This document shows, piece after piece, positions 14,016 through 34,854 of a stretch of 64,000 bases of DNA. Position 1 is the stretch's first letter. Each line of letters starts with the position of its first letter. Under the pieces are notes generated by a model that made no database searches, was not told where the DNA came from, and was given only the letters and a program-made list of their open reading frames with translations. The stretch covers positions 1,056,001 to 1,120,000 of the forward strand of contig CAXXOA010000002.1 in the NCBI GenBank assembly GCA_963666275.2. Direction: 5' to 3'. This stretch comes from Oceanispirochaeta sp. (GTDB lineage Bacteria > Spirochaetota > Spirochaetia > DSM-2461). Both the position numbers and the translations under genes were made by a program.

Positions 14016-15410
14016 TCAGAATCCGAAATAGCTGTTGGCGTTGCGGAAACTGATGTCCTCCACCATGGCTCCCACCAGATCAAAGTCCAGGGGGATCAGG
14101 CCTTGTTCCATATCCTTACCCAGGACATTGCAGAGAATCCGTCTGAAATACTCATGTCTGGTGTAGGAGAGGAAAGACCGGCTGTCTGTGAGCATTCCCA
14201 CAAAACGGCGGAACAGTCCCAGCTGGGAAAGGGCTTCCATCTGACGCTCCATCCCGTCTTTCTGGTCCAGGAACCACCATCCTGAGCCCATCTGAATCTT
14301 CCCGGCGACGCTGCCGTCCTGAAAGTTGCCCAGCATGGTGGCGATCACCTCGTTGTCCCGGGGGTTCAGATTGTAGATAATGGTTTTGGGGAGTTTGTCC
14401 TCCCTGTCGAGCAGATCCAGGTAGGCCGCCAGGGGGCGGGCAAAGTTCTGGTCGTCAATGGAGTCGAATCCCGTATCGGGGCCCAGCTGTTTGAACAGGC
14501 GGGAATTGTTGCTTCTCAGCGCTCCGATATGAAGCTGCTTTGTCCAGCCCTTCTCCGCATCCATCCGGCCGAACTCCAGCATCATGGCAGTTTTGAACTT
14601 ATCCGCTTCTTCGGGAGTGACCGCACCGCCGGCTCTGGCCCTGTCAAAAATGGCTGTGATCTCCTGATCTGTAAAGGGAGAGGCGTAGACCGTATCCAGT
14701 CCATGGTCGGACAGGCGGCATCCCGCATCGTGGAAGTACTGATGTCTCAGGCGCAGGGCTTCAATCAGGGAGGGGTAGGAGTCTATGGATATATCTGACA
14801 CTTCGGAAAGCCGGTTCAGATAGTCGTTCCAGAAGTCCTTGTCTACGGCCATGGCTTTATCGGGACGCCATGTGGGGAGGATCTTTACGGCAAATCCCTC
14901 TTCCGCCAGGGCTTTATGGTGCTCCAGGCTGTCGATGGGGTCATCGGTTGTACAGGAGGCCACCACTTTGCTGTCTGTCATCAGTTTACGGGCGGACAGG
15001 CCGCCTGTGAGAACCTCTGAGGTTCTGTTCCAGACCTCCTCCGCTGTATCCCCTGAGAGCAGCACGTCGTCAATGCCGAAGTACCGGGCCAGTTCCAGAT
15101 GGCTCCAGTGGTACATGGGATTCCTCAGCAGGTAGGGCATGGTTTCGGCGAATTTCTGAAACTTCTCCCTGTCGGACCGGCTTCCGGTGCAGAACTCTTC
15201 TGCAATCCCGTTGCTCCGCATGGTTCTCCATTTATAGTGATCCCCGTAGAGCCAGACCTTTGTTATATTGTCCCAGCTGATATCGTCCCGGATCTCTTTA
15301 GGATTGAGATGGCAGTGGTAATCTATGATAGGCTGGTGCTCCGCATAATCATGATACAGTTTTACGGCAAAAGGATTTTCCAGCAGAAAATCTTCATTGA
15401 TGAATTTCAT
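14016..15410 (-). CDS. uxaC: Glucuronate/galacturonate (uronate) isomerase
   Basis: IIDYHCH, GDHYKWR, CTTDDP, GSGWWFLDQ, LTDSRSFLSY. Start reassigned to ATG 15410 (MKFINEDFLL) after GGAG. Confidence 0.96.
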   Translation of the reverse strand: MKFINEDFLLENPFAVKLYHDYAEHQPIIDYHCHLNPKEIRDDISWDNITKVWLYGDHYKWRTMRSNGIAEEFCTGSRSDREKFQKFAETMPYLLRNPMYHWSHLELARYFGIDDVLLSGDTAEEVWNRTSEVLTGGLSARKLMTDSKVVASCTTDDPIDSLEHHKALAEEGFAVKILPTWRPDKAMAVDKDFWNDYLNRLSEVSDISIDSYPSLIEALRLRHQYFHDAGCRLSDHGLDTVYASPFTDQEITAIFDRARAGGAVTPEEADKFKTAMMLEFGRMDAEKGWTKQLHIGALRSNNSRLFKQLGPDTGFDSIDDQNFARPLAAYLDLLDREDKLPKTIIYNLNPRDNEVIATMLGNFQDGSVAGKIQMGSGWWFLDQKDGMERQMEALSQLGLFRRFVGMLTDSRSFLSYTRHEYFRRILCNVLGKDMEQGLIPLDFDLVGAMVEDISFRNANSYFGF

Positions 15411-15455
15411 ATTTATCTCCCATGTTTTATTGAGCATCCCCGGTGGGATGTTTCT

Positions 15456-16961
15456 TTACAGAGTCACACCATCTTTGAAAATGGCAATTTCCCGAATCCC
15501 GCTTTTTTCGGCTGCGGTCTGTTCCCCGTTAACGACTTTCAGGATCTTATCCAGCAGAAGTTCCGTTGCTTCCGCCATATCGGAAGAGCCGTCCCCGATG
15601 ATCCCCGCATTAAAGTCGATCCACTTCTTTTTGTGTTCTGCCAGGGCGGTGTTGCTTGCAATTTTCAGAGTCGGGATGAATCCGCCCAGGGGGGTTCCCC
15701 GGCCGGTGGAAAAGAGGACAATCTGACATCCCGCCGTTCCCAGGGCTGTGGTGGCGACAATGTCATTGCCCGGGGCATACAGAAGGTTCAGTCCCTTCCT
15801 GCTGACCCGGCTGTCCATTTTTACAACATCCAGGATCTCCGACTTTCCGGATTTTCTGATACATCCCAGGGATTTATCCTCCAGAGTGGTAATCCCTCCG
15901 GCCTTGTTGCCCGGGGAAGGGTTCTCATAGACAGGCTGGTTATGGTCCTGATAGTACTTTTTGTAGCTCTCTATCATGTCTTTGGTTTTTTCGAAAACAG
16001 ATTCATCCGCGCACTGTTTCATAAGGACATTTTCGGCTCCGAACATCTCCGGTACCTCTGTGAGAACAGCGGTTCCCCCGGACTTTATAATTCTGTCGGA
16101 GACAGATCCGATCAGAGGATTGGCTGTTATACCGGAAAAGGCATCGGATCCGCCGCACTCCAGTCCCACAACAAGATCCGACCAGGAGCAGTCTGTCCGG
16201 CTGTCTCCTGAAGCCGCCTCCAGAAGTTCTTCCAGACAGGCTATGCCCGCCTCGATTTCATCTTCCACGTTCTGAGCCGCCAGGTACCGGATCCTTTCGG
16301 GGTCCGGCTCTTCGGGCATGGTCTCCCGGAAGGCCTTGATCTGATTGTTTTCACATCCCAGCCCCAGTACCAGGACTCCCCCCGCATTGGGATGAAGAGC
16401 CATGTTCTGCAGCAGACTGCGGGTCCTTTCGTGGTCATCTCCCAGCTGGGAACAGCCGTAGGGATGGGTAAAACAGTAGACGCCGTCAATACCGGCCAGT
16501 CCTTCCTGCCCCTTCCGCATCAGAAACTGCTGCAGGATCTGCTGGGCTGTTCCATTGACGCATCCCACGGTCGGGAGGATCCACAGTTCATTGCGGATAC
16601 CGGCTTTTCCGTTTTTCCGTTTGAATAAACGGGGAACCGATACAAGGGGGCTTATTTCTGAGCTGCCTTTTTCCGGTTCATATCGGTACTCGGTTTTCTC
16701 GGACAGACCGGTTTTGATATTGTGTACATGCACATGTTCACCGATCTGTATCTCCTTTCGGGCATAACCGATGACGGCGCCGTATTTCAGTACAGCTTCG
16801 CCTTCTTTTATGATCTTTACCGCAACTTTATGACCTTTGGGGATATCATTCAGGACCCTGATGGTATCCGGGCCGGCGGCTACCGCCGCGCCGGACTCCA
16901 GATCCGAGAAAGTGATTCCCACATTATCTTTTTCATCTAGAAAAAACAGTTCGGGATTCAA
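15456..16961 (-). CDS. uxaA: Altronate dehydratase
   Basis: SAF domain (IPKGHKVA, KYG), PTVGCVN, HPYGCSQLG, LGCENN, CGGSD, SPGNKAGG. Confidence 0.93.
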   Translation of the reverse strand: MNPELFFLDEKDNVGITFSDLESGAAVAAGPDTIRVLNDIPKGHKVAVKIIKEGEAVLKYGAVIGYARKEIQIGEHVHVHNIKTGLSEKTEYRYEPEKGSSEISPLVSVPRLFKRKNGKAGIRNELWILPTVGCVNGTAQQILQQFLMRKGQEGLAGIDGVYCFTHPYGCSQLGDDHERTRSLLQNMALHPNAGGVLVLGLGCENNQIKAFRETMPEEPDPERIRYLAAQNVEDEIEAGIACLEELLEAASGDSRTDCSWSDLVVGLECGGSDAFSGITANPLIGSVSDRIIKSGGTAVLTEVPEMFGAENVLMKQCADESVFEKTKDMIESYKKYYQDHNQPVYENPSPGNKAGGITTLEDKSLGCIRKSGKSEILDVVKMDSRVSRKGLNLLYAPGNDIVATTALGTAGCQIVLFSTGRGTPLGGFIPTLKIASNTALAEHKKKWIDFNAGIIGDGSSDMAEATELLLDKILKVVNGEQTAAEKSGIREIAIFKDGVTL

Positions 16962-18439
16962 AGGTATTCCTCCAGTGTGGCGGCCATGCCGTTGGTGATG
17001 ATCTTATAAATATCTTCTCCCACTTTCCTGTGAAGTCCTTCCAGGCTTTTAAGGGAAACTCCCCAGTGGTCGTCCAGAGAGAGGATCCGGTCTGCTATCG
17101 CCATGGCATCCTCTATGGAGGCGGGATCTTCCGCCCATAGTTCTTCATAAAGGTCCAGGAAGGGTTTGTCATCGTTCACAGGATACTCTTTTCCGTCCAG
17201 GGTCCCTCTGTAGAAACAGATCAGCGCCGCCAGAGAAAGAGACATCAGCGGGGGTACAGAGGCGTTGGATTTATAATATTCCAGGAACTGCGGGAGCAGA
17301 CGGGTTTTGAATTTGGTCATGGAATTCAGTGAGATGGAAAGGAGCTGATGGTTGATAAAGGGGTTTCTGAACCGGCCCAGTACTGTTTCAGCATAGTCTT
17401 TCAGGTAATCCTCAGGCATACCCAGATTGGGGATAATCTCCCTGTCCAGCAGGTTCTGAATGAACGCGGCGAGCTCTTTATTTTCCACAGCATCCTTCAC
17501 AAGCTCAATGCCGCACAGGTAGGCCACCGGAACCAGGGCTGTATGACAACCGTTGAGGATGCCGACTTTTCTCTGTTTGTAGGGTTTCAGATCTTCTACA
17601 AGCTTGATATTCAGGCCGCTGCCTTCCAGTTTCAGTTCTTTTCCAACAGATTCAGGTCCCTGAATTACGAAGAGATGGAAGTACTCGCCGGTGGTGATGA
17701 AATTGTCTTTGTAACCCAGCTCTTTCTCCAGTTCTTCCACTTCATCCCGGGGGTATCCTGTGACGATCCGGTCAACCAGGGTGGAACAGAAAGTGTTGTG
17801 ATTTTCAAGCCACGAGACAAACCCGGGTTCCAGGTTCCAGAGGGCCGCGTATTTAAGAACTATTTCCTTCAGTGCGTCTCCGTTGTAGTCAATCAGTTCA
17901 CAGGGGATCAGGATAAATCCGGAATCCGCAGAACCGCCGAATTTTTTAAATCTCTCATGGAGAAAACGGGTCAGTTTGCCCGGGTAGGCCGACTGGGGAC
18001 GATCTTCGTATTTGTCGTCGGGATTGTAGGCGATTCCCGCTTCGGTCGTATTGGAAACGATAAACCGCAGCTGGGGATTCTCCGCCTGGGAGAGAAACTC
18101 ATCATACTCTTTGTAGATGGGAATCTCCCGGTTGATACAGGAAATCAGGCGTTTCTCGTTTTTCAGTTCCCCCTGGTCATCGTATCCCCGTATGATAGAG
18201 GTATAAATCCCGTCCTGGGTGTCCAGCAGAGGGGGGAAGTCTGTATCGATGGGACGGACGACCACTACACCTGCATCCAGACCGTTTTTCTCGTTCAGGA
18301 TATCCACCTGCCAGTCGATGAAACAGCGGAGGAAGTTCCCTTCTCCGAACTGGAGGATCTTTACCGGCCGTTCCTGCTTTGTACAGCCGAATTCCGCAGC
18401 TGTCGATCTATTCATTGCTTTGCCTGTTGTATTGCTCAT
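16958..18439 (-). CDS. uxaB: Tagaturonate reductase (altronate oxidoreductase)
   Basis: QFGEGNFLR, SNTTEAGI, PCELI, TLVDRIVTG, RFRNPF, ISLNS; adjacent to uxaA and uxaC. Confidence 0.94.
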   Translation of the reverse strand: MSNTTGKAMNRSTAAEFGCTKQERPVKILQFGEGNFLRCFIDWQVDILNEKNGLDAGVVVVRPIDTDFPPLLDTQDGIYTSIIRGYDDQGELKNEKRLISCINREIPIYKEYDEFLSQAENPQLRFIVSNTTEAGIAYNPDDKYEDRPQSAYPGKLTRFLHERFKKFGGSADSGFILIPCELIDYNGDALKEIVLKYAALWNLEPGFVSWLENHNTFCSTLVDRIVTGYPRDEVEELEKELGYKDNFITTGEYFHLFVIQGPESVGKELKLEGSGLNIKLVEDLKPYKQRKVGILNGCHTALVPVAYLCGIELVKDAVENKELAAFIQNLLDREIIPNLGMPEDYLKDYAETVLGRFRNPFINHQLLSISLNSMTKFKTRLLPQFLEYYKSNASVPPLMSLSLAALICFYRGTLDGKEYPVNDDKPFLDLYEELWAEDPASIEDAMAIADRILSLDDHWGVSLKSLEGLHRKVGEDIYKIITNGMAATLEEYL

Positions 18440-18479
18440 TTCATACTCCTATCTAATATCCTATGTATATAAAGGGGAC

Positions 18480-19220
18480 TCATTCCCCCTGATCTCCTGA
18501 AAATACTCTCTTCATGGCCCAGTTCCTGTGCTGAACCATTTCCGCTTCCGCCTGATCCGCATCGCCCTGACGGATGGCTTCGAGAATCCGGATATGTTCC
18601 ATGGGGATCCGGGAGAAATCCTTGTCTTTCTGTTTCAGATGAGGCTGATCCTGCATGACAATCCGGGGGGTCAGCTGGCTGAAAAGGGATACAAGGACAT
18701 GGTTCCCCGTGGCATGGGCTATGGCCAGGTGGAAAAGATAGTCCTCTTCCAGGTAATCTTCCTTGCCGTAGAACCGGGCAAGAAACTCCTCCTGCCTCTG
18801 TTCTATCAGTTCCAGATCGGCGGGAGTTCTTCTTTCCGCCGCCAGTCTGGCGCACTGGACATCCAGGATAAACCGGGCTTCCATCAGATCCGCCATTTTC
18901 TGATCCCTGCTCACCGGTATCGACTGCATCAGCTGTTCCACTGTTCCGCTGTGCATATTGGCAATCCGTGTACCGCTCTGGGGAGATATCTCCACAAGAC
19001 CGTAGAAGTCCAGTTTCTGAAGAGCTTTCCTTATGGTTCCCCTGGTGGTCTCCAGCTTCTCCGCCAGTGCTCTTTCCGAGGGGAGTCTGGCTCCCGGCTG
19101 AAGCTGCCCCGAGACGACAAGCTCCCGTATTCTGGAAAGGATAAAATCCTCAGGTTCCCTGTCTTTGCTGCTGTTTTCAAAAAGTTCCAGAGATACTGCC
19201 GTATTTTTTTCTGATTCCAT
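18480..19220 (-). CDS. GntR/FadR family regulator (UxuR/ExuR-like)
   Basis: LQPGARLPSERALA HTH; FCD domain (DYLFHLAIA...EHIRILEAI); in the uxa operon. Confidence 0.9.
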   Translation of the reverse strand: MESEKNTAVSLELFENSSKDREPEDFILSRIRELVVSGQLQPGARLPSERALAEKLETTRGTIRKALQKLDFYGLVEISPQSGTRIANMHSGTVEQLMQSIPVSRDQKMADLMEARFILDVQCARLAAERRTPADLELIEQRQEEFLARFYGKEDYLEEDYLFHLAIAHATGNHVLVSLFSQLTPRIVMQDQPHLKQKDKDFSRIPMEHIRILEAIRQGDADQAEAEMVQHRNWAMKRVFSGDQGE

Positions 19221-19229
19221 CGAGTCCTC

Positions 19230-19823
19230 TTATTTCTTCTCTTCCGGCTGCTTTTCGCGGTTTTGTTTTATCGGGGCGGTGCTGTTTCCTGTACGGGAAG
19301 GGGACAATACCCATCGTCCTTCGGGCGCAGCCGATTGAACATACTCCCAGAAGTCATCTCCGGTGATCCCTTCCTGCAGGTCTCTTTCCGGCAGGATAAA
19401 AGCCCTTGAAGGGTTGATATAGAGGAAGAAATAGTTTTTATATCTGTAAATTCTATAGATCGAAGTCCATTCCAGAGACTGCCTTTCCTTCTGGTTTGCC
19501 ACTTCAATCCTCTTATTTTCAAAGCTGATGGTGTATACAAGACGCTTCTGATCCAGGTGATTCACCCTGATCTGGTTCCGCAGACTGATTCTGAAATACA
19601 CAAGGTAGAGGAGTGGCGCAGCCAGCGCAATGATCAGAAAAAGCGCGAAAAGGAAGGCGCTTCCGGTAACCAGATTCAAAACGGCGAAACCCGCTATAAC
19701 GAGGGGGAACATTATCAGACTTATCCAGCGGCGCTGAAAAAGAAAGCTGTTGAAAAAAGCAAAATCCCGAAAAATTTCAGCATCCATATGGCTCTTGAAC
19801 TTATAATTGTTATCCTTTTCCAA
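19230..19823 (-). CDS. YcxB-like 2-TM membrane protein
   Basis: Two TM helices, then a WTSIYRI...FFLYI...AFILP C-terminal pattern. Start likely TTG at 19823 after AGGGAG. Confidence 0.7.
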   Translation of the reverse strand: MEKDNNYKFKSHMDAEIFRDFAFFNSFLFQRRWISLIMFPLVIAGFAVLNLVTGSAFLFALFLIIALAAPLLYLVYFRISLRNQIRVNHLDQKRLVYTISFENKRIEVANQKERQSLEWTSIYRIYRYKNYFFLYINPSRAFILPERDLQEGITGDDFWEYVQSAAPEGRWVLSPSRTGNSTAPIKQNREKQPEEKK

Positions 19824-19843
19824 TAGAAATACTCCCTGAAAAT

Positions 19844-19896
19844 AATTGGTCAACCAGTGAATCTCATTAATATAACTGGTTAACCAATTGTGTCAA
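19844..19896 (-). promoter_or_regulatory. Sigma70 promoter with two UxuR/ExuR-type operators
   Basis: Minus-strand TTGACA (19896-19891), 16 bp, TATATT (19874-19869). Palindromes AACTGGTTAACCAATT (19874-19889) and AATTGGTCAACCAGTG (19844-19859). Confidence 0.8.
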
Positions 19897-20006: not shown

Positions 20007-21920
20007 ATGCCACTACTTGAAATCTTTGGAAATATACTCATACCGGCCTTCACCGGAATTATACTCTTCATCTACTTTCTCTATTTTGCCTTTATTGAAG
20101 AGTCAAAAACCAACTCGATCCGGTACTTTACGGTTTTCCTGATCTCCTTCAGCTTTTTTCTTTTCGGAAGGCCTGTGCAGATCCTTTCGGGAGCGCATCC
20201 GGCTCCTGTGATCATTAACAATATCCGAACCTTCATTTTCAGTTCCCTTACCATTCCCATGGTAATCCTGGCAGATTTCTCCCGGCCGGCAAAAGACCGG
20301 AGGTTCCTGTTCCGCCCGCTTATGACGGCAGGGGTTCTGACCGGGGTGATCTACTCCTTCTTCAATACCATAACAACTACAGGGTCTGAGGTCATTTTCA
20401 GAATAGGCAATATCAATGTGTATGACTCGGTGACTCCCAGCAGAACCGGTCCCTTTTACGGGAGGGAAGTCACCATTGCGATCTATCTTGTACTGGCCAC
20501 CATCCTGTTTCTGGATTCCATTGCAAAAATCCAGCGGGCCAGAGGGTATGGCGCCAGAGGGGAGGTAAACCAGAAAAAGGTCTACCTGTATAACATAGGA
20601 AAAATGGTTTTCGCTTTTACATTCTTTTTCGGTGCTCTGGCTCACCAGTGGTGGATCTACTATGTGGGGGCTCTGATAAGCGTTTCATTCCTTGGCTCCG
20701 GTATCGCCCTGGAGATACGGGAAAACAGGGTAAGAATGCAGAAAGTCATTGCCTATATCAGGGAGGACCTGATTCAGGACCTTTCTCTGGATGTTCAGAT
20801 ACATAAGCAGGTTTCGGATATGCTGAAGCTGCTCCAGATTCCCGAAGAAATCAACACATTCATTGTCCTGAAGGAAAATCCCCAGAAAAAGGGAAAAGGA
20901 AGGGAGAAGCCCTGTCTCAGCGATTCGGTGATCAAGGAGACATCTCTCCTCCTCGATAGGATCCTGGGAAGCAATCACTACATTCTCATGCCCATGGGAA
21001 CGGACATGCTGGGAATCTGTCTTCCCGTAGAATCGGCGGCGGATATCTGCCGAAGCGAAACAATACGGGTCTGTGAGACGCTGAAGGGCGTAATGGATAT
21101 CTTCAGTGACTTTGATTTCGGTATAGGACGGTCCTACAAGGGGCTGGAAGACCTGAAAAGCTCCTACCACGAAGCCGTCACGGCAGTGGAGTATGCCGGC
21201 AGGATAGAAGGGGGGCAGGTTGTTCATATTACGGATATCCATGACGAAGAGCCCCGGAGAGAGTATCCCCTGAAAGAGAAAAACGCCTTCCTGGCTGCCA
21301 TTCGCATGGGAGACGGGGTCAAAGCCCAGGAGCAGCTCCAGGCCCTTATGTCTCTTCTCTTCAGCTATGGGAACGAAACGGACAAACTCCAGAAGGTAAG
21401 AACCTATGAGCTTCTGGGGACCATGGTGGAATCCGCCATTGCCGGAGGGGGGGATGTGGATGAACTCCTGGATCTCAGTGAGAAGCTCTTCTCCGAGCAG
21501 GTCATGATCCGCAGTACCTCCCAGCTGGCTGAGTGGCTGAAGCTGCGCACCGATGAGATCATTCAGATAGTCTCCCGTTCCTATTCCAACAGATCAAAGA
21601 ATCTGGTGATCAAAGCGAAAGAGTATATCAGCAGTCATTATGCCGAGGCCATTTCCGTCAGAGATGTGGCAGATGCGGTCTGCATAAGCGAATCCTATTT
21701 TAAATCCATCTTTAAAAAGAGCAGCGGATACTCCTATTCGGAATATCTGACTGTGGTCCGTATCGACCAGGCAAAGAATCTGCTCAACACAACAGAGAAA
21801 TCTGTGACAGAAATTGCCCTGGATGTGGGCTATCAGACCCCGAATTCCTTCAGTTCCCTCTTTAAAAGAGAGACGGGACTCACTCCTACCCAGTGGAAAA
21901 ATCTTCAGAAAAAAGTCTGA
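20007..21920 (+). CDS. Membrane-anchored AraC family regulator (about 7 TM + CdaR/GGDEF-like domain + AraC HTH)
   Basis: Hydrophobic N-terminal ~235 aa; FGIGRSY..LEDLKSSYHEA; C-terminal VTEIALDVGYQTPNSFSSLFK. Confidence 0.85.
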   Translation: MPLLEIFGNILIPAFTGIILFIYFLYFAFIEESKTNSIRYFTVFLISFSFFLFGRPVQILSGAHPAPVIINNIRTFIFSSLTIPMVILADFSRPAKDRRFLFRPLMTAGVLTGVIYSFFNTITTTGSEVIFRIGNINVYDSVTPSRTGPFYGREVTIAIYLVLATILFLDSIAKIQRARGYGARGEVNQKKVYLYNIGKMVFAFTFFFGALAHQWWIYYVGALISVSFLGSGIALEIRENRVRMQKVIAYIREDLIQDLSLDVQIHKQVSDMLKLLQIPEEINTFIVLKENPQKKGKGREKPCLSDSVIKETSLLLDRILGSNHYILMPMGTDMLGICLPVESAADICRSETIRVCETLKGVMDIFSDFDFGIGRSYKGLEDLKSSYHEAVTAVEYAGRIEGGQVVHITDIHDEEPRREYPLKEKNAFLAAIRMGDGVKAQEQLQALMSLLFSYGNETDKLQKVRTYELLGTMVESAIAGGGDVDELLDLSEKLFSEQVMIRSTSQLAEWLKLRTDEIIQIVSRSYSNRSKNLVIKAKEYISSHYAEAISVRDVADAVCISESYFKSIFKKSSGYSYSEYLTVVRIDQAKNLLNTTEKSVTEIALDVGYQTPNSFSSLFKRETGLTPTQWKNLQKKV

Positions 21921-22096: not shown

Positions 22097-23122
22097 GTGA
22101 AAAAAAGAATTGTTTTGCTATCTATTGTTTTAATGATGGCCAGTACCCTGGTATGGTCCAATGGTCAGAGTGACAGCGGTTCCGCTTCTGACGGCGCTAA
22201 AAAGAGCTACACCTTTAAATTTGCCGAACTCAACCCCAAAGGTCATATTATGGAACAGGTTGATTCCAAATTTGCCGAACTGGTTTACGAAAAATCAGAC
22301 GGACGGATCAATATCGAAGTATTCCCCGCAGGTCAGCTGGGTGATGAGAAAACCATGTATCAGTCTCTTCAGATGGGCGGCGGCGCCATCGATATGTGTC
22401 GTGGAAACACCAACTCTCTGGGTGACTTCGGCGTCAAGAAACTGACCCTTTTCGGTCTTCCCTTTATTTTCCGCGACAGAGAACACCTCTGGAATGTTCT
22501 GAACAGTGAAATCGGTCAGGAATTCCTGAAAGAACCCCAGGAAATCGGAACCGGTATGGTTGGTCTTTTCTACCTGGACGAAGGTGCCCGTCATATTTTT
22601 ACAAAGCCCGGAATCGAAATCAACAGTGTTGAGGATCTGGAAGGTCTGAAACTCAGAGTTCCCACTACTCAGCTGATGTCCGAAACCTTCCAGGCTCTGG
22701 GTGTTCAGCCCACTCCCATCAGTTTCGGTGAGCTCTACTCCGCTCTTCAGGCCGGTACAGTTGACGGTGCTGAACAGCCCTACTCCGGTTACTTTTCCAA
22801 CAACTTCTTTGAAGTAGCTCCCAACTATACCCTGTCCGGTCATACCTACAGCCCCTCTATCGTTCTTATGAGCGAAGCGGTATTCAACAAACTGGATGAC
22901 GAAGACAAAGCTATCATCATGGAAGCTGCGAAAGAAGCGGAACAGTACAACCTGGCTTCTATCGAAAAACTGGACGGCGAACTGATTGAAAAAATCAGAG
23001 CTACCGGAGCCACTGTTAACGACGTTGCCGACAAAGCTGCCTATGTCGACCTGGCTAAACCTGTTGTTATGAAATACATCAAAGGCCTGGAAAGCGACTA
23101 CGAAGCAATCCTCGCAAAATAA
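22097..23122 (+). CDS. dctP: TRAP transporter substrate-binding protein
   Basis: FPAGQLG, LFGLPFIF, GLKLRVP (carboxylate-binding Arg), ELYSALQAGTVDGAE; signal peptide; GTG start. Confidence 0.93.
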   Translation: MKKRIVLLSIVLMMASTLVWSNGQSDSGSASDGAKKSYTFKFAELNPKGHIMEQVDSKFAELVYEKSDGRINIEVFPAGQLGDEKTMYQSLQMGGGAIDMCRGNTNSLGDFGVKKLTLFGLPFIFRDREHLWNVLNSEIGQEFLKEPQEIGTGMVGLFYLDEGARHIFTKPGIEINSVEDLEGLKLRVPTTQLMSETFQALGVQPTPISFGELYSALQAGTVDGAEQPYSGYFSNNFFEVAPNYTLSGHTYSPSIVLMSEAVFNKLDDEDKAIIMEAAKEAEQYNLASIEKLDGELIEKIRATGATVNDVADKAAYVDLAKPVVMKYIKGLESDYEAILAK

Positions 23123-23142
23123 GTTCTGACAGGATTCAGCTT

Positions 23143-23179
23143 ATAGGGGCCAGAGCAGTTTCGCTTTGGCCTTATTTTT
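23143..23179 (+). terminator. Intra-operon hairpin / partial terminator after dctP
   Basis: GGCCAGAGC-AGTTTC-GCTTTGGCC followed by TTATTTTT. Confidence 0.6.
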
Positions 23180-23190
23180 CAGGAGTTAAA

Positions 23191-23766
23191 ATGAAAACTG
23201 TTACCAAGTTTTTCGATATGGTTTACTGGGTTTTACTTACAATCTGTAAGATCGGATTTGTAGGGATGATTGTAATAACCACCAGTGTCATCATTAATCG
23301 CTATTTCATAAAATCCCCCATGACCTGGGGGGAACCGGTCGTGCTCATGTTCATGGTGTACATGTCTCTTATCAGTGCTGCCCTGGCGATCCGGAAAGAT
23401 ACCCATATCCGTATGCAGATCATCGACTATATGGTGCCCGCAAAAGTCATGCCCGCCATACGGGCTTTCGGTCAGATCCTCATGTTCGGTTTCGGACTGT
23501 TTCTGTTTATATACGGTTGTAAATTTTTAAAAATTGCCAACAGGAATATCATCACGGGGATGTCCATCAAATCCAGCTGGCTGTTCATGGCAGGGCCTGT
23601 TTCGGGAGCCGCCATCATGCTTATGGAAATAGAACGTTTTATCAACTTCTGGCACCGCGTTGCCACCGGACAGAAGCTTGAGATAACCCGATGTCAGGAA
23701 GAGGAAGCCGAAGCCCTTGTGGAAGATGCGGCAGAAATCATCCAACACTGCGAGGATAATGAATAA
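23191..23766 (+). CDS. dctQ: TRAP transporter small permease
   Basis: Four TM helices, RYF....WGE, HIRM motif; between dctP and dctM. Confidence 0.9.
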   Translation: MKTVTKFFDMVYWVLLTICKIGFVGMIVITTSVIINRYFIKSPMTWGEPVVLMFMVYMSLISAALAIRKDTHIRMQIIDYMVPAKVMPAIRAFGQILMFGFGLFLFIYGCKFLKIANRNIITGMSIKSSWLFMAGPVSGAAIMLMEIERFINFWHRVATGQKLEITRCQEEEAEALVEDAAEIIQHCEDNE

Positions 23767-25076
23767 TGGATCATAATACTATCGCCACCCTCATTCTGGT
23801 GGGCTCATTTTTCGTATTTCTGGTTCTGAGAGTTCCTATTGCCTTTGCAATCGGAGTCTCAAGTATCGTAACAACAATCTATCTGGGCCTTCCCATCATG
23901 CAGATAGCCCAGCTCATGATCAAGGGTGTAAATGTCTACACTCTGATGGCTGTCCCTTTCTTTATTATCGCCGGTGAACTTATGGGAGCCGGAGGGATTT
24001 CAAACCGCCTCATCAATCTCTCCAATGCCATTATCGGCTGGATGCGGGGCGGTCTGGCCACTGTGAACGTCATGGCTTCCATGTTTTTCGGAGGGATCTC
24101 CGGATCATCTACTGCCGACACCGCCTCTCTGGGTACGATTCTTATCCCCATGATGGCCAAAGAAGGGTACGACAAGGAGTTTGCCACAAACATTACCATG
24201 GCCAGTTCTGTTCAGGGACTGCTTATTCCTCCCAGTCACAATATGGTAATGTACGCCATGGTTGCCGGAGGAGTTTCTGTAGGACGTCTGTTCCTGGGAG
24301 GGATCATTCCGGGAGTATTCCTCGGTATAGCCCTTATGGTGTTCAGTTATATTGAAGCTGTCAAACACAAGTATCCCAAGGGAGATCCCTTCAATTTCAA
24401 GACCCTCTTTGTAACTCTGGCCGACTCTATCTGGGGTCTCATCACCGTTCTTATTGTGGTCGTCGGGGTTGTCAGCGGTGTGTTCACGGCAACCGAGTCC
24501 TCTGCTATTGCCGTTGTCTGGGCCATCCTTGTGGGTATCATCGTCTATAAGGAACTGACACCTGTTAAAATCTGGCATCTCATGGAACGGTCTCTGAATA
24601 CTCTGGCCATCGTTATGATTCTGATTTCCACGTCCCAGGTATTCGGATGGCTTCTGACCTATCTTCATATGCCCGAACTGGTTGCCAGCGGTATCCTCGG
24701 TCTGACGCAGAATAAAATCGTCATTATGATCATTCTCAATATTGTTATGCTGATTCTGGGAACCATTATGGACATGTCTGCCATTATTCTGGTCGCCACA
24801 CCCATTCTGCTGCCCATTGCCAGAACCATAGGAATGGATCCTGTACACTTCGGAGTGGTTATGATTCTCAACCTGGGTATCGGTCTGATTACCCCGCCTG
24901 TAGGAGGAACCCTTTTTGTAGGTTCTGCTGTTTCCGGCGTTCCTATAGAGAACCTGGTAAAGAAACTGCTTCCGTTCTTTATGATTATGATTGCGGTACT
25001 GCTTGTCATTACCTATGTACCGGAGATCGTAATGCTGCTTCCGGATAGACTGATGCCACTGGCTGTGGGCAACTGA
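23766..25076 (+). CDS. dctM: TRAP transporter large permease
   Basis: LMAVPFF, FGGISGSSTAD, LIPPS, FTATES, GLITPPVG. Confidence 0.95.
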   Translation: MDHNTIATLILVGSFFVFLVLRVPIAFAIGVSSIVTTIYLGLPIMQIAQLMIKGVNVYTLMAVPFFIIAGELMGAGGISNRLINLSNAIIGWMRGGLATVNVMASMFFGGISGSSTADTASLGTILIPMMAKEGYDKEFATNITMASSVQGLLIPPSHNMVMYAMVAGGVSVGRLFLGGIIPGVFLGIALMVFSYIEAVKHKYPKGDPFNFKTLFVTLADSIWGLITVLIVVVGVVSGVFTATESSAIAVVWAILVGIIVYKELTPVKIWHLMERSLNTLAIVMILISTSQVFGWLLTYLHMPELVASGILGLTQNKIVIMIILNIVMLILGTIMDMSAIILVATPILLPIARTIGMDPVHFGVVMILNLGIGLITPPVGGTLFVGSAVSGVPIENLVKKLLPFFMIMIAVLLVITYVPEIVMLLPDRLMPLAVGN

Positions 25077-25099
25077 AGCTGCGGATAAAGGTTGATATT

Positions 25100-25879
25100 A
25101 TGCAGAACAATTCCCCTGCCGCCGACGGCCTCTCATCCTTTCCTTCTGTGCCGGATCCCCCGGGTGCTGTTGTGATCTGCCCGGGCGGCGGGTATCAGAT
25201 GCTGGCCGACCGGGAAGCTGAACCTGTGGCTGCGGCATTTGCCGCCCGGGGCTGGCAGCCGTTCGTGCTCCGGTACCCTATAAAGGATGAGACCCGTCAG
25301 GATCCTCTTCTGAGAGAGCCTCTTGAAGCTCTGGCCCGGGCTGTCTCCCGGGTAAGGGAGGAAGGATTCCCTTTTGTGGCGGTCTGCGGATTTTCCGCCG
25401 GAGGCCATCTGTCGGCTTCTCTGGGAGTCCATTGGGCCGAGATGGATGAACGTCTGGCTTCTGAATCTTCCGATGGACAGGCACCCCCCTCCTGTCGTCC
25501 CGATGCCATGGTGCTCAGCTATCCGGTTATTTCCATGATCAATGATGTACATCAGGGATCCATGGAAAATCTTACGGGACAGGATCCGGCGCTGAGGGAG
25601 TATTTTTCTCTGGAACTGCAGGCCGGTCCGGAATCCTCACCGGCCTTCCTCTGGCATACCGCTGATGACAGGGAGGTCCCCGTGGAAAACTCTCTGGAAT
25701 TCTTCTCTTCTCTCAGAAGAGCAGGTGTTTTCAGTGAGCTTCATATTTTTCCCCGGGGTGTCCATGGGCTGTCTCTGGCGACACCGGAAGTCGATCAGCC
25801 CGAAAAGGGTCGTCTCTCCGACCCGCATGTAGCGCAGTGGTTCTCGCTGGCTCTCAGCTGGCTTGATCAGCTCCGGTAA
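25100..25879 (+). CDS. Cytoplasmic alpha/beta hydrolase (carbohydrate acetyl/feruloyl esterase-like)
   Basis: CPGGGY oxyanion motif, GFSAGG nucleophile, DDREVP Asp, GVHG His; no signal peptide. Confidence 0.85.
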   Translation: MQNNSPAADGLSSFPSVPDPPGAVVICPGGGYQMLADREAEPVAAAFAARGWQPFVLRYPIKDETRQDPLLREPLEALARAVSRVREEGFPFVAVCGFSAGGHLSASLGVHWAEMDERLASESSDGQAPPSCRPDAMVLSYPVISMINDVHQGSMENLTGQDPALREYFSLELQAGPESSPAFLWHTADDREVPVENSLEFFSSLRRAGVFSELHIFPRGVHGLSLATPEVDQPEKGRLSDPHVAQWFSLALSWLDQLR

Positions 25880-25916
25880 TATGGCAAACTAATTTCTTGA
25901 GTGATGGTAAAAAACA

Positions 25917-27044
25917 ATGAAAGATGAATTTGATACAACATTAGCTGACTCCCAGGGAACTGCGGTTGCGCCTCTGGCAGCGAAAGACTTTGATCTGGGT
26001 GCCTATGAAGACTATGAGGCCTCTCTGCTGGAGGGATGCCGGAAATTCTGGGATGCCGAAGAAGGGATCGCCGTATACAGGCGATTCCGGGTCCCCGAGG
26101 TTTTCTCCTGGGCCGCCCGGGACAAAAAACTGTCTCTGGAACTGCAGCTGGCAGGTTTGACAAAAAGCCGGGACTATATTTCAGATATCCCCAACTTTCT
26201 GGAGCCCTGGTACGGTATCGGTGTGGTCTCCAGTGCTTTCGGTGTGCCCTATATCTGGCACGACGGGCAGGCTCCGGCTGTAGAGGGACCCTTCCTTTCC
26301 GCACGGGACGCATTGGATCATAGGGTTTCTTCTGTGGGAGAGAGTCCCGAAGGGAAACGGGTTCTGGAGATGATCGAGTATTTCCTGGACCAGACAAAAG
26401 GCCGGGTTCCCCTGAGCCTGGGAGATACCCAGTCTCCCCTGAATATTGTCTCCTCCTATCTGATGGAGTCCTCAGCTTTCATGTTTGAGATCTTCGACCA
26501 TCCGGAGGATTTGAAAGAACTGGTTGATACGGTTGCCACTATGGAGCAGGATTTTCTGGAGGAACAGCGCAAACTGATCGGGGATGCTCTGGCGAAACCG
26601 GGCCATGGTTTTGCCTCCTCCCGGGCCTTCGGCGGCGTCGGGTTCAGCGATGACAATATCCTTATGTTCAGCGATGACGATTACAGCTCTCTTGGAATTT
26701 CCTCCATGAAGACAGCGGCCCGTTCTTTTGAAGGTCCTGTCTTCCACTCCTGCGGCAACTGGGCCGACAGGGCGGAGCTTGTTAAAACGATTCCCGGTCT
26801 CATTATGGCCGACGGAGCGGTGGGAAAGCAGACCGATCCCTCTCCCAATGATCCTGAAGTTCTCGGGAAAGCCTTTGCCGGTTCCGGTGTGGTCCTTCAT
26901 GTCAGGATCGTCGGTTCTTCCGATACCGTTCTGACCTATACGGAAAAACTGAAGCACCCCGGCCTGAAGTGTATTGTCACTACCTACTGTGAGACTCCGG
27001 AAGATCAGGAGAAAGCCTACAGGGGCATTCATAACCTGGTCTAG
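25917..27044 (+). CDS. Uroporphyrinogen decarboxylase (URO-D)/MtaA-fold protein
   Basis: DTQSPLNI, FSDD, VFHSCG (H-x-C) pattern typical of URO-D-fold methyltransferase-like proteins. Confidence 0.7.
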   Translation: MKDEFDTTLADSQGTAVAPLAAKDFDLGAYEDYEASLLEGCRKFWDAEEGIAVYRRFRVPEVFSWAARDKKLSLELQLAGLTKSRDYISDIPNFLEPWYGIGVVSSAFGVPYIWHDGQAPAVEGPFLSARDALDHRVSSVGESPEGKRVLEMIEYFLDQTKGRVPLSLGDTQSPLNIVSSYLMESSAFMFEIFDHPEDLKELVDTVATMEQDFLEEQRKLIGDALAKPGHGFASSRAFGGVGFSDDNILMFSDDDYSSLGISSMKTAARSFEGPVFHSCGNWADRAELVKTIPGLIMADGAVGKQTDPSPNDPEVLGKAFAGSGVVLHVRIVGSSDTVLTYTEKLKHPGLKCIVTTYCETPEDQEKAYRGIHNLV

Positions 27045-27102
27045 GCCCGGAGGGGATCAAAGGGTCCATGGCATTATTAAAGAAGAAAAGAGGAAAAGAA
27101 CA

Positions 27103-28152
27103 ATGAAATTTGATGTTACCTTTCACCCGTCCTGGTGGAATCAGAACCTTGGTATCCGGTTTACAGAGGATTTTTTCAATAACCCCGAATACAGAATCGC
27201 TTCGGATGTGAAGATGAGGCGCTGTCTCTTTGAAAAATTCGGCGAGTGGGGAATCGGAGAAGAAAATCCCGAACCCCGGCCTCTTCTGGGGAGTGATCTT
27301 ATCGCCAGCGGCTACCTCTATTCCAGCCTGCTGGGATGCGATATCAGATACAGCGAGGAGGCGCCTCCCGAAGTTATCTGCGCGGCTCTCTCCGAGGAGG
27401 AGGCAGGCCGTTTCAAAGCTCCTTCTCTGGAGGATTGTCCTGACTGGCAGATTGTGGAGGAGCAGATCCGCTGGCTGCAGAAAGAGTACGGATCCGTCCA
27501 TTCCGCCCTGAACCTTCAGGGAGTCCTGAACCTTGCCCTGGATCTCCGGGGTGACTCCATTTTTATAGATATGTACCAGGATGAAGAGAAGGCCAGAAAC
27601 CTTTTCGATCAGTGTTTTGATCTTTCCGTCCAGGTGGGAAAAAGGCTCTCTCAGGTCTCGACCACTCTCTCCGGCGGTGTGACAGCTATTACCAATGTTC
27701 TGGATTTTCCGGGACTCTATGTCCACTCCAACTGTTCCGTTGAGATGATTTCACTGGATAACTACAGGGATTTTCTGCTGGAGTACGATAAAAAGCTGTC
27801 CGGCCTGTTTCAGCCCTATGGAATCCACCACTGCGGTCAGTCCATGGAGCATGTGGCAGAAGGCTATGCTGAGGTTCCGGGAATGGTTTTTGCCGAAGTG
27901 GGGGCCGGTTCAAAGATTGCGGAAGTAAGGAAAATGCTTCCCGACTGCTGGCTGAATCTGCGGTATTCCCCTGTAAAACTCAGTGATGTTCCCGAGAGTG
28001 AACTCAGGACGGAACTGCAGCAGATGGTTCTGGACGGGGGAGGGGTCGCTTCACCGGTTTCTCTTTCCTGTGTGGGGATCGACAAGTCTGTTTCCGATGA
28101 GCAGGTCTCTTTGTTTCTCAGGATCATGAAAGAGATAGATCAGCAGGGATAG
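27103..28152 (+). CDS. Second URO-D/MtaA-fold protein
   Basis: QGVLNLALDLRGDSIFIDMY, NCSVEMIS, GIHHCG (H-x-C). Start at ATG 27103 after GAGG. Confidence 0.7.
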   Translation: MKFDVTFHPSWWNQNLGIRFTEDFFNNPEYRIASDVKMRRCLFEKFGEWGIGEENPEPRPLLGSDLIASGYLYSSLLGCDIRYSEEAPPEVICAALSEEEAGRFKAPSLEDCPDWQIVEEQIRWLQKEYGSVHSALNLQGVLNLALDLRGDSIFIDMYQDEEKARNLFDQCFDLSVQVGKRLSQVSTTLSGGVTAITNVLDFPGLYVHSNCSVEMISLDNYRDFLLEYDKKLSGLFQPYGIHHCGQSMEHVAEGYAEVPGMVFAEVGAGSKIAEVRKMLPDCWLNLRYSPVKLSDVPESELRTELQQMVLDGGGVASPVSLSCVGIDKSVSDEQVSLFLRIMKEIDQQG

Positions 28153-28197: not shown

Positions 28198-29469
28198 CTA
28201 CCGGAATTTCTCCTCCAGCGCCCACAGCCCCAGTGAGGGGTTGGAGACATAAAAAATCTCCTCCCCGCCGGGCAGAATGTTCCAGCCTTCTTTCAGGGTT
28301 TCCGGTCTGTATCGGGACCGGTACTCCTCCAGGTCTCCATAGGCATATCCTATCTGCTCAATATCCTCCCGGCCCAGTCCTCCCGGACAGTAGGTGACCC
28401 TGAATCTATCGTCGGTTGACCCATGGATCAGATGGGCCGCCGCGCTGAGATTTTCTGCCAGTTCCGGATCTTCTTCCACCATCTTCAGTGTGTGATCAGT
28501 CCCTTTGTATCCGAATTTCCGGATAATTCTGTCTATCCTTTCGCTCTCGCCGAAACTGTGAACCTCCGGAGCGAGGATGATCAGCTCTCCCTGATCCGCC
28601 AGGGCCATACGGGTTCTGTAAATTCCCTTGTTGGCCAGCCATGTGCTTCTGAAGCCTTCCTCTTTCAGAGAGACGAGAATTTTTGAAGGGGCTCTGTCGA
28701 GGAGAGTTATATTCACCTGCCGGGAAAGCTCTGCCGCTTTTCTGTAGCACTCTTCATCGTCTCCGATGAAAATTCCCCTGGTAACAGGATTCCCGCTGCT
28801 GTCGGAAGTGATCACAGTCAGGACATAGAGAATAGGCAGGTTCCGGCAGAACTGATCCACTCCCCGGTTGAAAAGCTGCCGGACCGGCGTGTTGGTCCGC
28901 CCCATGATCCCTTCCATTCCGCAGACAGCTCCCAGGAAATGGCTTTTATCAATGGCTTCCTTTCCTCCGACACCGATGACAATGTTTTTGGAGTAGTTAG
29001 CCATCCCGGCAATCACATGGGGAACCACCTGACCTATGGAAAGGATAAGATCCCATGGTTCATCTACCATGGTTCTATTGATTTCCACAGGCCAGTCAAA
29101 GGAGAGTCTGCCCTGGGATATCTCTTCGATAAAGGCGGTATCGACACGGCCCAGCTCTATGAGCTCATCCTTCCAGTTGTGGTCCGTAATGAGGTGACCC
29201 GGTAGATCTCCGAACATCTTCTGTTTCTCTTTTTCCGACATGGGAGTGTGGGTTCCCAGGGCGGGAATGACTTTTTTTACCCTGCTGCCCAGTTTCTGCC
29301 AGGTCAGTTCTGTGATTTCCCCCGCCCGGGAGTGATGCCGGGTAAAATCCGGAGGTATTATAAGGGTGTTTTCCTTCTGAGGGATTCTGTCCAGAACTGA
29401 AAAAAGGATATCTCTGATATCCTGGTGGGAAAGGTCCGTTGTTTTGGAACCTACAGCAGCGTAGAGCAT
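28198..29469 (-). CDS. LarA (lactate racemase) superfamily nickel-pincer alpha-hydroxyacid epimerase, D-mannonate/gluconate 2-epimerase-like
   Basis: PDFTR, ALGTH, DHNW, VPH-x9-K (PHVIAGMANYSK), SHFLG, WLANK. Confidence 0.82.
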   Translation of the reverse strand: MLYAAVGSKTTDLSHQDIRDILFSVLDRIPQKENTLIIPPDFTRHHSRAGEITELTWQKLGSRVKKVIPALGTHTPMSEKEKQKMFGDLPGHLITDHNWKDELIELGRVDTAFIEEISQGRLSFDWPVEINRTMVDEPWDLILSIGQVVPHVIAGMANYSKNIVIGVGGKEAIDKSHFLGAVCGMEGIMGRTNTPVRQLFNRGVDQFCRNLPILYVLTVITSDSSGNPVTRGIFIGDDEECYRKAAELSRQVNITLLDRAPSKILVSLKEEGFRSTWLANKGIYRTRMALADQGELIILAPEVHSFGESERIDRIIRKFGYKGTDHTLKMVEEDPELAENLSAAAHLIHGSTDDRFRVTYCPGGLGREDIEQIGYAYGDLEEYRSRYRPETLKEGWNILPGGEEIFYVSNPSLGLWALEEKFR

Positions 29470-33359: not shown

Positions 33360-33376
33360 GGAGAAGGGTAGCTTAT

Positions 33377-34714: not shown

Positions 34715-34854
34715 TTTTTTGCTCCATATCCTGCGTTGGAAAATACTCAGGTACATACGTACCTTCCGTTTTTCCTGCCCTGTATATGAAACAAATCCTT
34801 CAACCTTAAAGCAAAAAGAATTTAAGCGGCCCACCGGCCAAAGGAGATAAACAT

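Follow-up and report, generated by a model that had tools for sequence, protein, structure and literature searches.

Why are two divergent proteins of the URO-D family encoded beside the genes of hexuronate catabolism in a spirochaete? The question is raised by a 64-kb stretch of DNA (the window) from an Oceanispirochaeta genome of 5.27 Mb that is 97% complete (G000; in what follows, G-numbers denote genomes and L-numbers loci). At positions 22,097 to 28,152 of the window, six intact open reading frames on the + strand encode a TRAP importer (dctPQM), an esterase and two URO-D family proteins, here called A and B, next to uxaCAB. The original prediction for this DNA, made from the letters alone, had described a TRAP importer, a Ser esterase and two URO-D-fold proteins beside uxaCAB, and this gene content is confirmed. 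Judged from sequence and predicted structure, A and B may be corrinoid-dependent O-demethylases, that is, methyltransferases I (MT I), for methyl-etherified hexuronates, with O-methyl-galacturonate the likeliest substrate; as a whole this reading is tentative.

Fold and putative metal site of proteins A and B

The two proteins are 21% identical over 203 residues and have 1888 (A) and 603 (B) homologues at E<=0.001. Their AlphaFold2 models (pLDDT of 95.6 for A and 96.5 for B) find MtaA (PDB entries 4ay7 and 4ay8) as the top Foldseek matches. VIA-align gives Z scores of 19.8 and 22.4, respectively, against 4ay7 and of 21.2 and 22.0 against UroD, compared with 14-15 against MetE and about 10 against glycosidase barrels. 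As modelled, both proteins belong to the UroD-type TIM barrels, with the next unrelated fold at a Z of about 10.

The motifs FHSCG (residues 276-280 of A) and HHCG (residues 242-245 of B), to which the original prediction had drawn attention, are present and are invariant in the homologues. Residues H277, C279 and C358 of A are invariant in 51 sequences, as are C211, H242, C244 and C323 of B in 53 close homologues; in 81 more distant sequences of the B clade H242 and C211 are retained in 100% and C244 in 85%. When the profiles are aligned with those of MtaA-like proteins, H277, C279 and C358 of A coincide with the H-x-C and the distal Cys there; H242 and C244 of B match the H-x-C, and C323 aligns only approximately.

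The pair had been likened to the MtaA/CmuA-type members of the fold. The fold and the Zn-ligand motif bear this out; the family score does not, as B reaches only 30.7 bits against TIGR01463 (cut-off 235.4) and A has no match at E 0.01. The role is probably also a different one, and we infer that A and B act as substrate-side MT I rather than as MtaA-type enzymes on the acceptor side. The HemE model TIGR01464 matches neither protein at E 0.01. Searches with the family profiles against the sequences of solved structures gave a best E of 0.33 for A and no match for B, and in the ESM Atlas A falls in URO-D-named or unnamed clusters only. Prediction of an A+B complex gave no answer (score 0.00 in each of two runs, controls not folded).

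Conservation of the pair

The neighbourhood of A was compared in the best 80 of 382 genome stretches that encode it, and that of B in 80 loci, several of them near-duplicates, kept from 137 metagenome matches. Neighbours were labelled by BLAST to annotated representatives, and the loci are unequal in length. Fifty A genomes were hand-picked from the 80 for long contigs and taxonomic spread, and 200 evenly drawn Bacteroidales genomes served as the background.

The 80 A loci come from Spirochaetota, Bacteroidota, Planctomycetota, Bacillota, Atribacterota and KSB1. In 32 of them A is accompanied by B or by the sister family B', and 39 of the 50 A genomes have one of these two, the remaining 11 having no B match. 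Among 58 long homologues of A, 56 are B'-A fusions, every one with both H-x-C-G motifs, although these fusions may trace to few events. A and B are a conserved pair in several phyla and constitute a real module.

A is found in eight of ten other genomes of the host genus. The cassette of regulator, TRAP importer, esterase, A and B is complete in L013, L297, L299 and L302, with uxa genes adjoining only L013 and L302. In random samples A is rare, with one distant match in 250 genomes of the host phylum and occurrence in 4 of the 200 Bacteroidales (7 of 200 for B). Each protein also occurs singly: many loci have A, but no B, next to a transporter and GH28, and elsewhere B is found next to GH138 with A missing. 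Cultured isolates carry A/B genes (L019, L074 and L087); Phocaeicola coprophilus, Butyricicoccus pullicaecorum and Geosporobacter ferrireducens are isolates in which both members of the pair occur.

Two further features of these neighbourhoods were noted. The B' protein at L018:13333-15171 has a Gfo/Idh/MocA (GH109-like) oxidoreductase domain as its fusion partner, and four recurrent neighbour families (of about 465, 621, 633 and 857 aa) are unannotated or weakly GH30/59-like.

Candidate corrinoid partners

The window had been read as lacking a corrinoid protein and an activator, and a genome search for such partners had been proposed; the search places both outside the window. A stand-alone corrinoid protein (211 aa, with the motif DLHDIG) is encoded at C2:2265534-2266169, in trans to A and B. 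A RACo activator (PF14574, 251 bits) follows at C2:2267879, two genes away, so that corrinoid protein, an AraC regulator and RACo lie together at C2:2265534-2269705. The genome offers candidates for a methyltransferase II (MT II), among them an MtaA-like protein (C2:158604) that is clustered with two CobW-like genes (C2:156532-159968) and a stand-alone homocysteine methyltransferase (C1:1808317). No stand-alone pterin-binding MT II was found in G000, where PF00809 gives frames of 277 and 824 aa that were read as FolP and a split MetH, and MtaB was not found in this genome. Against this one corrinoid protein stand 12 PF01208 matches in the genome, of which many lie beside sugar ABC importers.

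At the level of whole genomes, 49 of the 50 A genomes have a TIGR02370 match (E<=1e-44) in short frames or in fusions other than MetH, including all 21 Bacteroidota among them. In the background, 42 of the 200 Bacteroidales are non-MetH corrinoid-positive, two of these in frames of about 800 aa that are perhaps MetH-type. In the unbiased sample all four A genomes and all seven B genomes are positive (naive P of 1.7e-3 and 1.2e-5, values that ignore kinship and the link through shared use of rhamnogalacturonan II, RG-II). RACo is present in 31 of the 50 A genomes.

Some loci bring the parts together. L059 combines A, a third URO-D family, B', a corrinoid protein, a methyl-tetrahydrofolate:corrinoid transferase (NF005719, above cut-off) and methylenetetrahydrofolate reductase, and L039 and L067 have a gene set akin to it. 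L167 holds uxaC, A, B, RACo, corrinoid and MtaA-like genes, L171 holds B, A, uxaBAC and a corrinoid gene, and in L066 A occurs with the MtaA-like/CobW module. L124 has GH138, GH2 and B', the last of these directly ahead of a corrinoid gene, and L274 likewise links URO-D and corrinoid genes. One protein, P0260, is a B-clade barrel (292 bits, 31% identical to B) fused to pterin-binding and B12-binding domains. That A and B depend on a corrinoid is, in our judgement, likely.

The MtaA-like protein carries a thioredoxin-like tail, and its association with CobW-like genes is conserved (also in L066, L107, L108 and L135); in other genomes the module clusters with corrinoid protein and RACo. It is a candidate for a shared methyl acceptor module. 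Other URO-D paralogues of G000 (C1:248882, C1:601673, C1:631483, C2:1657010 and C2:1668932) adjoin sugar ABC importers and, by eye, inositol-catabolism-like genes; the paralogue at C1:631145-632382 has stops within the match.

Importer, esterase and substrate

The closest solved relatives of DctP are 4n8y and 4x8r (E of about 1e-51), whose ligands we take to be uronates, the relatives of DctP presumably including both galacturonate and glucuronate binders. By homology, DctP probably imports a (methyl)hexuronate. The esterase has a Ser-Asp-His triad in the motifs GFSAGG (97-102), HTADD (186-190) and HGLS (222-225) and matches PDB entry 6a6o at E 1e-40. Its best models are the lp_1002 arylesterase NF052620 (160 bits) and the pectin acetylesterase PaeX equivalog NF041902 (113 bits, where the equivalog score is 550), and it stays below the cut-off of both. 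The N-terminus has no hydrophobic run and is not signal-like; the protein is a candidate cytoplasmic enzyme for the cleavage of an acetyl or methyl ester. Transporters of the scored types occur in 59 of the 80 A loci and esterases, from three unrelated families, in 19. In 17 loci the transporter neighbour is a major facilitator superfamily protein of the TIGR00893 family, below cut-off, for which 'ExuT-like' is our own label.

Galacturonate/pectin markers are found in 33 of the 80 A loci (GH28 in 20, UxaE in 12, and UxaA/UxaB, PL1-like, GH105/88, KduI and GH138), compared with glucuronate/xylan markers (GH67, GH115 and UxuA) in one; among the 65 loci of at least 10 kb the counts are 26 and 1. 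GH28 is the commonest glycosidase neighbour of A. In the 80 B loci the corresponding counts are 12, or 20 with GH4 genes that most resemble the alpha-galacturonidase LplD, and 0. Recurrent linkage to uronate genes, on which the original prediction had staked its reading, is found in at least five phyla.

The pectin connection extends to RG-II. GH138, searched for with the BPa0997 family, is present in 17 of the 21 Bacteroidota A genomes, compared with 10 of the 200 background genomes, and in all four unbiased A genomes (three of three without the source of the query); it adjoins B' in G304, G425 and G490. In the accessible part of PMC7939467, the GH138 enzyme BT0997 is an alpha-galacturonidase of RG-II side chain A. 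The methyl-etherified sugars of RG-II are given in the accessible text of PMC8218411 as methyl-fucose (MeFuc), methyl-xylose (MeXyl) and methyl-galacturonate (MeGalA), with 0, 1 or 2 methyl groups on side chain A. A GH2 gene lies beside B' in L124, L271 and L272. Work by O'Neill from 2020 reportedly locates the ether on the beta-GalA of RG-II, at O-3, at O-4 or at both positions; if the ether is on this residue, the releasing enzyme would be a GH2 beta-galacturonidase and not GH138.

The O-demethylation of a methylated uronate, as originally proposed, remains the best-supported reading, whereas the example given for it, 4-O-methylglucuronate, is less favoured than O-methyl-galacturonate (33/80 as opposed to 1/80 loci). 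We regard an O-methyl hexuronate as the probable substrate; O-methyl-galacturonate specifically is plausible but falls somewhat short of probable.

Proposed mechanism

From the genes, the fold, the conserved ligands, the partner genes and their co-occurrence, we infer a reaction, a substrate, a bound Zn, a methyl acceptor and a division of labour between A and B, as follows. The TRAP system would import a decorated hexuronate, O-methylated and possibly also esterified, and the cytoplasmic esterase would take off the ester group. A and B would remove the O-methyl ether group or groups as substrate-specific MT I, possibly at different methyl positions or in different methylation states, with Zn on the His/Cys/Cys site polarising the methyl-O bond. 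The stand-alone corrinoid protein, held in the reduced state by the adjacently encoded RACo, would take up the methyl group on its cob(I)amide, and a second transferase, for which the MtaA-like protein, the homocysteine methyltransferase and the pterin domain of the split MetH are candidates, would unload it. The freed galacturonate would enter the uxaC-uxaB-uxaA pathway. The likeliest substrates would be the methyl-etherified galacturonates of pectin RG-II.

Alternative explanations

Several findings weigh against this mechanism. In MT II enzymes such as MtaA, the H-x-C…C arrangement serves to activate a thiol. RACo is absent from 19 of the 50 A genomes, mostly gut Bacteroidales, and likewise from the Bacteroides thetaiotaomicron control. 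A corrinoid-system gene lies in only 5 of the 80 A loci and 2 of the 80 B loci, and G046, a fragmented metagenome-assembled genome of 2.5 Mb with A and B', shows MetH only. Six Bacteroidales genomes have their sole non-MetH corrinoid domain in a fusion with a different URO-D protein, and nine of ten GH138 genomes are corrinoid-positive, so that the co-occurrence may in part reflect shared use of RG-II. By a quick tree, P0260 belongs to the B clade in the wide sense (support 98) and lies outside the B/B' subclade. As regards the substrate, the congener cassettes L297 and L299 are complete yet have no link to uxaCAB. G000 has no GH28, GH138 or GH141 match and would therefore have to scavenge monomers freed by others, which would fit a TRAP importer. 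The congener G506 has a TRAP-uxuA-oxidoreductase-uxuB-like operon with A (64% identical) at its head, no UxaE being found in that genome, and in G529 A closes a similar uxuA operon with uxaC, UxaE being present. GH115 occurs in all four unbiased A genomes (38 of 200 in the background), and GH67 in four of five A genomes tested. G000 has two UxaE genes, which could route glucuronate into uxaBA. In view of the uxuA-linked loci, the GH115 and GH67 genomes and the cassettes without uxa genes, A may accept more than one O-methyl hexuronate.

These operons, the GH115 counts, the UxaE genes and the mixed ligands presumed for the relatives of DctP would also suit the same MT I chemistry directed at 4-O-methylglucuronate from xylan or arabinogalactan, or at any O-methyl hexuronate whatever its C4 configuration, with the product passing through UxaE to uxaBA. 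We consider this unlikely, since GH67, GH115 and UxuA are so scarce in the A and B loci, GH138 is the more specific co-marker by its lower background, neither GH115 nor GH67 is matched in G040, which carries A and B', and G000 itself has no UxuA, GH67 or GH115 match. Moreover, the third URO-D family mentioned above (family C), which is present in both uxuA-linked loci, could be the glucuronate enzyme. The retained MtaA-type site, the pairing in 32 loci and the fusions could instead mean that only one protein is an MT I and that the other, likeliest A, is an MtaA-type MT II moving the corrinoid methyl to a thiol. Separate MT II genes accompany A and B or B' in L059, L039, L067 and L167, however, and each protein occurs without the other in the settings described above (11 of the 50 A genomes have no B match), which makes such a split very unlikely.

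The scarcity of corrinoid genes in the same locus, the G046 genome and the membership of cofactor-free UroD in the fold are what would be expected if A and B were corrinoid-independent Zn enzymes of uronate catabolism (an isomerase, epimerase, lyase, hydrolase or decarboxylase). A new corrinoid-independent reaction had been the original alternative, and it is disfavoured by a genome-level corrinoid association far above background, by the P0260 fusion and by the complete methyl-transfer clusters. UxaC is present in 42 of the 50 A genomes, often in the same operon, which leaves no need for A as a stand-in uronate isomerase, and A, in 4 of 200 Bacteroidales, is too rare for core uronate catabolism; this alternative is quite unlikely. 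It is also conceivable that the methyl group comes from galacturonate methyl-esterified at C6, or from methanol that the esterase would set free, and is salvaged into one-carbon metabolism. The three unrelated esterase families, the prominence of GH28 and a locus (L089) with MtaB and a corrinoid gene beside A can be cited for it. A methyl ester would, however, need no more than an esterase, and methanol has an MT I of its own, MtaB, which is absent from G000. Homogalacturonan with methyl esters is common, in contrast to A and B, whose rare occurrence tracks GH138. We therefore regard a methyl-ester donor as extremely unlikely.

Comparison with known systems

Corrinoid-dependent O-demethylation by MT I is itself established chemistry. 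The accessible part of PMC13222342 includes MT I O-demethylases and haloalkane MT I enzymes in the UroD superfamily, and OdmB/VdmB of Acetobacterium dehalogenans, MtvB of Moorella thermoacetica, archaeal MtoB and the haloalkane enzyme CdmB have a UroD-type barrel, like A and B. The likeness is one of fold and predicted parts and not of direct sequence comparison; the three- or four-part logic of these systems (MT I, corrinoid protein, MT II and RACo) is predicted here from parts found in G000 or in homologous clusters. As far as the same accessible text goes, the known MT I substrates are aryl methyl ethers or haloalkanes, whereas the context of A and B is one of sugar acids, in which the ether is an alkyl ether, and CdmB and MtvB are without zinc, whereas A and B keep the MtaA-type H-x-C…C site. 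Also unlike the known MT I systems, A and B have their partners in trans.

MtaA, MtbA and CmuA (TIGR01463; 4ay7) are the closest or joint-closest solved fold, with 14-15% identity and aligned His/Cys/Cys residues. Unlike them, A and B have no coenzyme M context and lie beside importers and glycosidases, not methylamine or methanol genes. HemE shares the fold and a weak PF01208 match with A and B but lacks the H-x-C…C metal-site motif, and there are no tetrapyrrole genes among the annotated A/B neighbours.

A methyl ether that blocks sugar catabolism is also the problem solved by the cytochrome P450 of marine Bacteroidota that acts on 6-O-methyl-galactose, the only carbohydrate demethylase that surfaced in the literature search. 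According to the accessible part of PMC6292453, that enzyme has a haem fold and is oxidative and O2-dependent, whereas for the A/B system the prediction is an anaerobic reaction in which the methyl group is conserved. The same text offers evidence that methylated sugars resist gut degradation, and the accessible part of PMC7939467 reports that B. thetaiotaomicron accumulates a methylated RG-II disaccharide. In B. thetaiotaomicron, BT_0340, BT_0342 and BT_0343 are annotated as methylamine-type corrinoid methyltransferase proteins (accessible part of PMC8941943), which puts a URO-D-type and a corrinoid protein in a glycan locus. A cluster of GH141, GH31, SSF, URO-D-like and corrinoid genes with the BT_0340-0343 layout occurs in many A genomes; its URO-D protein belongs to a different family (about 25% identity to B') and is uncharacterised.

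The literature search, whose coverage left out most subscription papers, found no study of the A and B families or of corrinoid-dependent sugar demethylation, and the words 'demethyl' and 'cobalamin' appear nowhere in the accessible main text of bioRxiv 2026.03.13.711244. What is new here is the assignment of URO-D families to uronates and RG-II. If it is correct, A and B would provide an anaerobic route for methyl-etherified uronates, corrinoid MT I chemistry would reach from aryl ethers to sugar acids, and pectin breakdown would be tied to B12-dependent one-carbon metabolism. With partner proteins and a short list of substrates named, the question is directly testable.

Related URO-D families

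Other URO-D families recur in these neighbourhoods. Family C (motif YHNCG) recurs with A and B (L016, L019, L028, L032-L034, L050, L059, L171, L173, L179, L298, L303 and L305) and is possibly an enzyme for 4-O-methylglucuronate. In L093-L097, L122, L133 and L134 a divergent URO-D-like protein occurs with GH31, GH141, SSF and a corrinoid protein. It often forms a single protein of about 600 aa with the corrinoid domain and also occurs fused to homocysteine methyltransferase and corrinoid domains (945-1249 aa). The module adjoins fucI and fucP in L122, and G000 has the same URO-D-like gene and GH31 with an ABC importer at C2:1804661-1807992 (L280). The module is a candidate for the use of 2-O-methyl-xylose(-fucose) and may yield methionine directly. 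A fourth URO-D family lies with a FucP-like permease (269 bits, just below cut-off), divergent from A, in L031, L039, L055 and L067; a small neighbouring open reading frame has no Pfam match and presumably resembles a rhamnose/fucose mutarotase. Members of this family are candidates for the demethylation of 2-O-methyl-fucose and would draw on the shared corrinoid module.

A broader and more doubtful idea is that these families jointly demethylate RG-II at each of its three methyl-etherified sugars, with a single corrinoid protein in common. A and B would serve MeGalA, the GH31/GH141-linked family MeXyl and the FucP-like-linked family MeFuc, each with its own transporter and glycosidase, and in anaerobes of the gut and of sediments the plant methyl groups would end up in folate or methionine. 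Beside A and B' in L020, L029 and L052 lie genes for a DapA-like aldolase, an Fe-alcohol dehydrogenase, a four-carbon acid-sugar kinase and a PdxA-family protein, a set that might process Dha, a sugar of RG-II.

Layout of the locus

The genes are listed in Table 1. The longest reading frame for B opens at TTG 26974, which is probably too far upstream: the homologues are about 345-350 aa long and match from ATG 27103, which was taken as the start. The block from the gntR-type gene to uxaC (14016-19220) is divergent from the TRAP-esterase-A-B operon, and UxaB and UxaA together mark the galacturonate branch.

Table 1. Genes at the hexuronate locus and their positions in the window
Feature	Position	Strand	Evidence
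uxaC, uronate isomerase	14016..15437	-	NF002794 636 bits, cut-off 387
uxaA-family altronate dehydratase, galacturonate branch (by family and context)	15456..16961	-	PF04295, PF20629, PF08666
uxaB, tagaturonate reductase, galacturonate branch	16958..18439	-	NF002969 667 bits, cut-off 359
GntR/FadR-family regulator heading uxaBAC	18480..19220	-	several GntR-family models, all below cut-off
YcxB-like membrane protein	19230..19853	-	PF14317
Membrane-anchored AraC-type regulator	20007..21920	+	C-terminal HTH_18/AraC
DctP, TRAP solute-binding protein	22097..23122	+	TIGR00787 216 bits, cut-off 175
DctQ	23191..23766	+	PF04290
DctM	23766..25076	+	TIGR00786 410 bits, cut-off 268
Alpha/beta esterase, 259 aa	25100..25879	+	motifs; NF052620, NF041902 below cut-off
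URO-D family protein A, 375 aa	25917..27044	+	PF01208 34.7 bits, above cut-off 23.9
URO-D family protein B, 349 aa from likely start	27103..28152	+	PF01208 23.1 bits, just below cut-off
LarA-family putative hexonate epimerase	28198..29469	-	NF052594 604 bits, cut-off 500

The AraC-type regulator, which is missing from the original prediction, occupies the same position in L013-L015, L017, L019, L297 and L299 and is the probable activator of the TRAP-esterase-A-B operon. The YcxB-like family adjoins TRAP, A or B genes in the spirochaete loci L013, L014, L297 and L302 and in the metagenome loci L145 and L160. A promoter and terminator scan of the locus gave seven promoter-like sites, with 9.2 expected by chance. 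The LarA-family gene probably lies outside the module because it is convergent with it and is a neighbour of A in a single locus out of 80; its product may bypass mannonate dehydratase, G000 having no UxuA match.

Elsewhere in the window, positions 31980-37314 hold a cluster for a 2-oxoacid dehydrogenase, in which E1 alpha and beta are fused into one protein of 819 aa, beside E2 and E3; the cluster is below every equivalog cut-off and is syntenic in L013. At 11052-12809 an FMN-binding domain is fused to an FAD oxidoreductase behind an N-terminal lipoprotein-like signal; the product is probably an extracellular flavin reductase unrelated to the A/B module.

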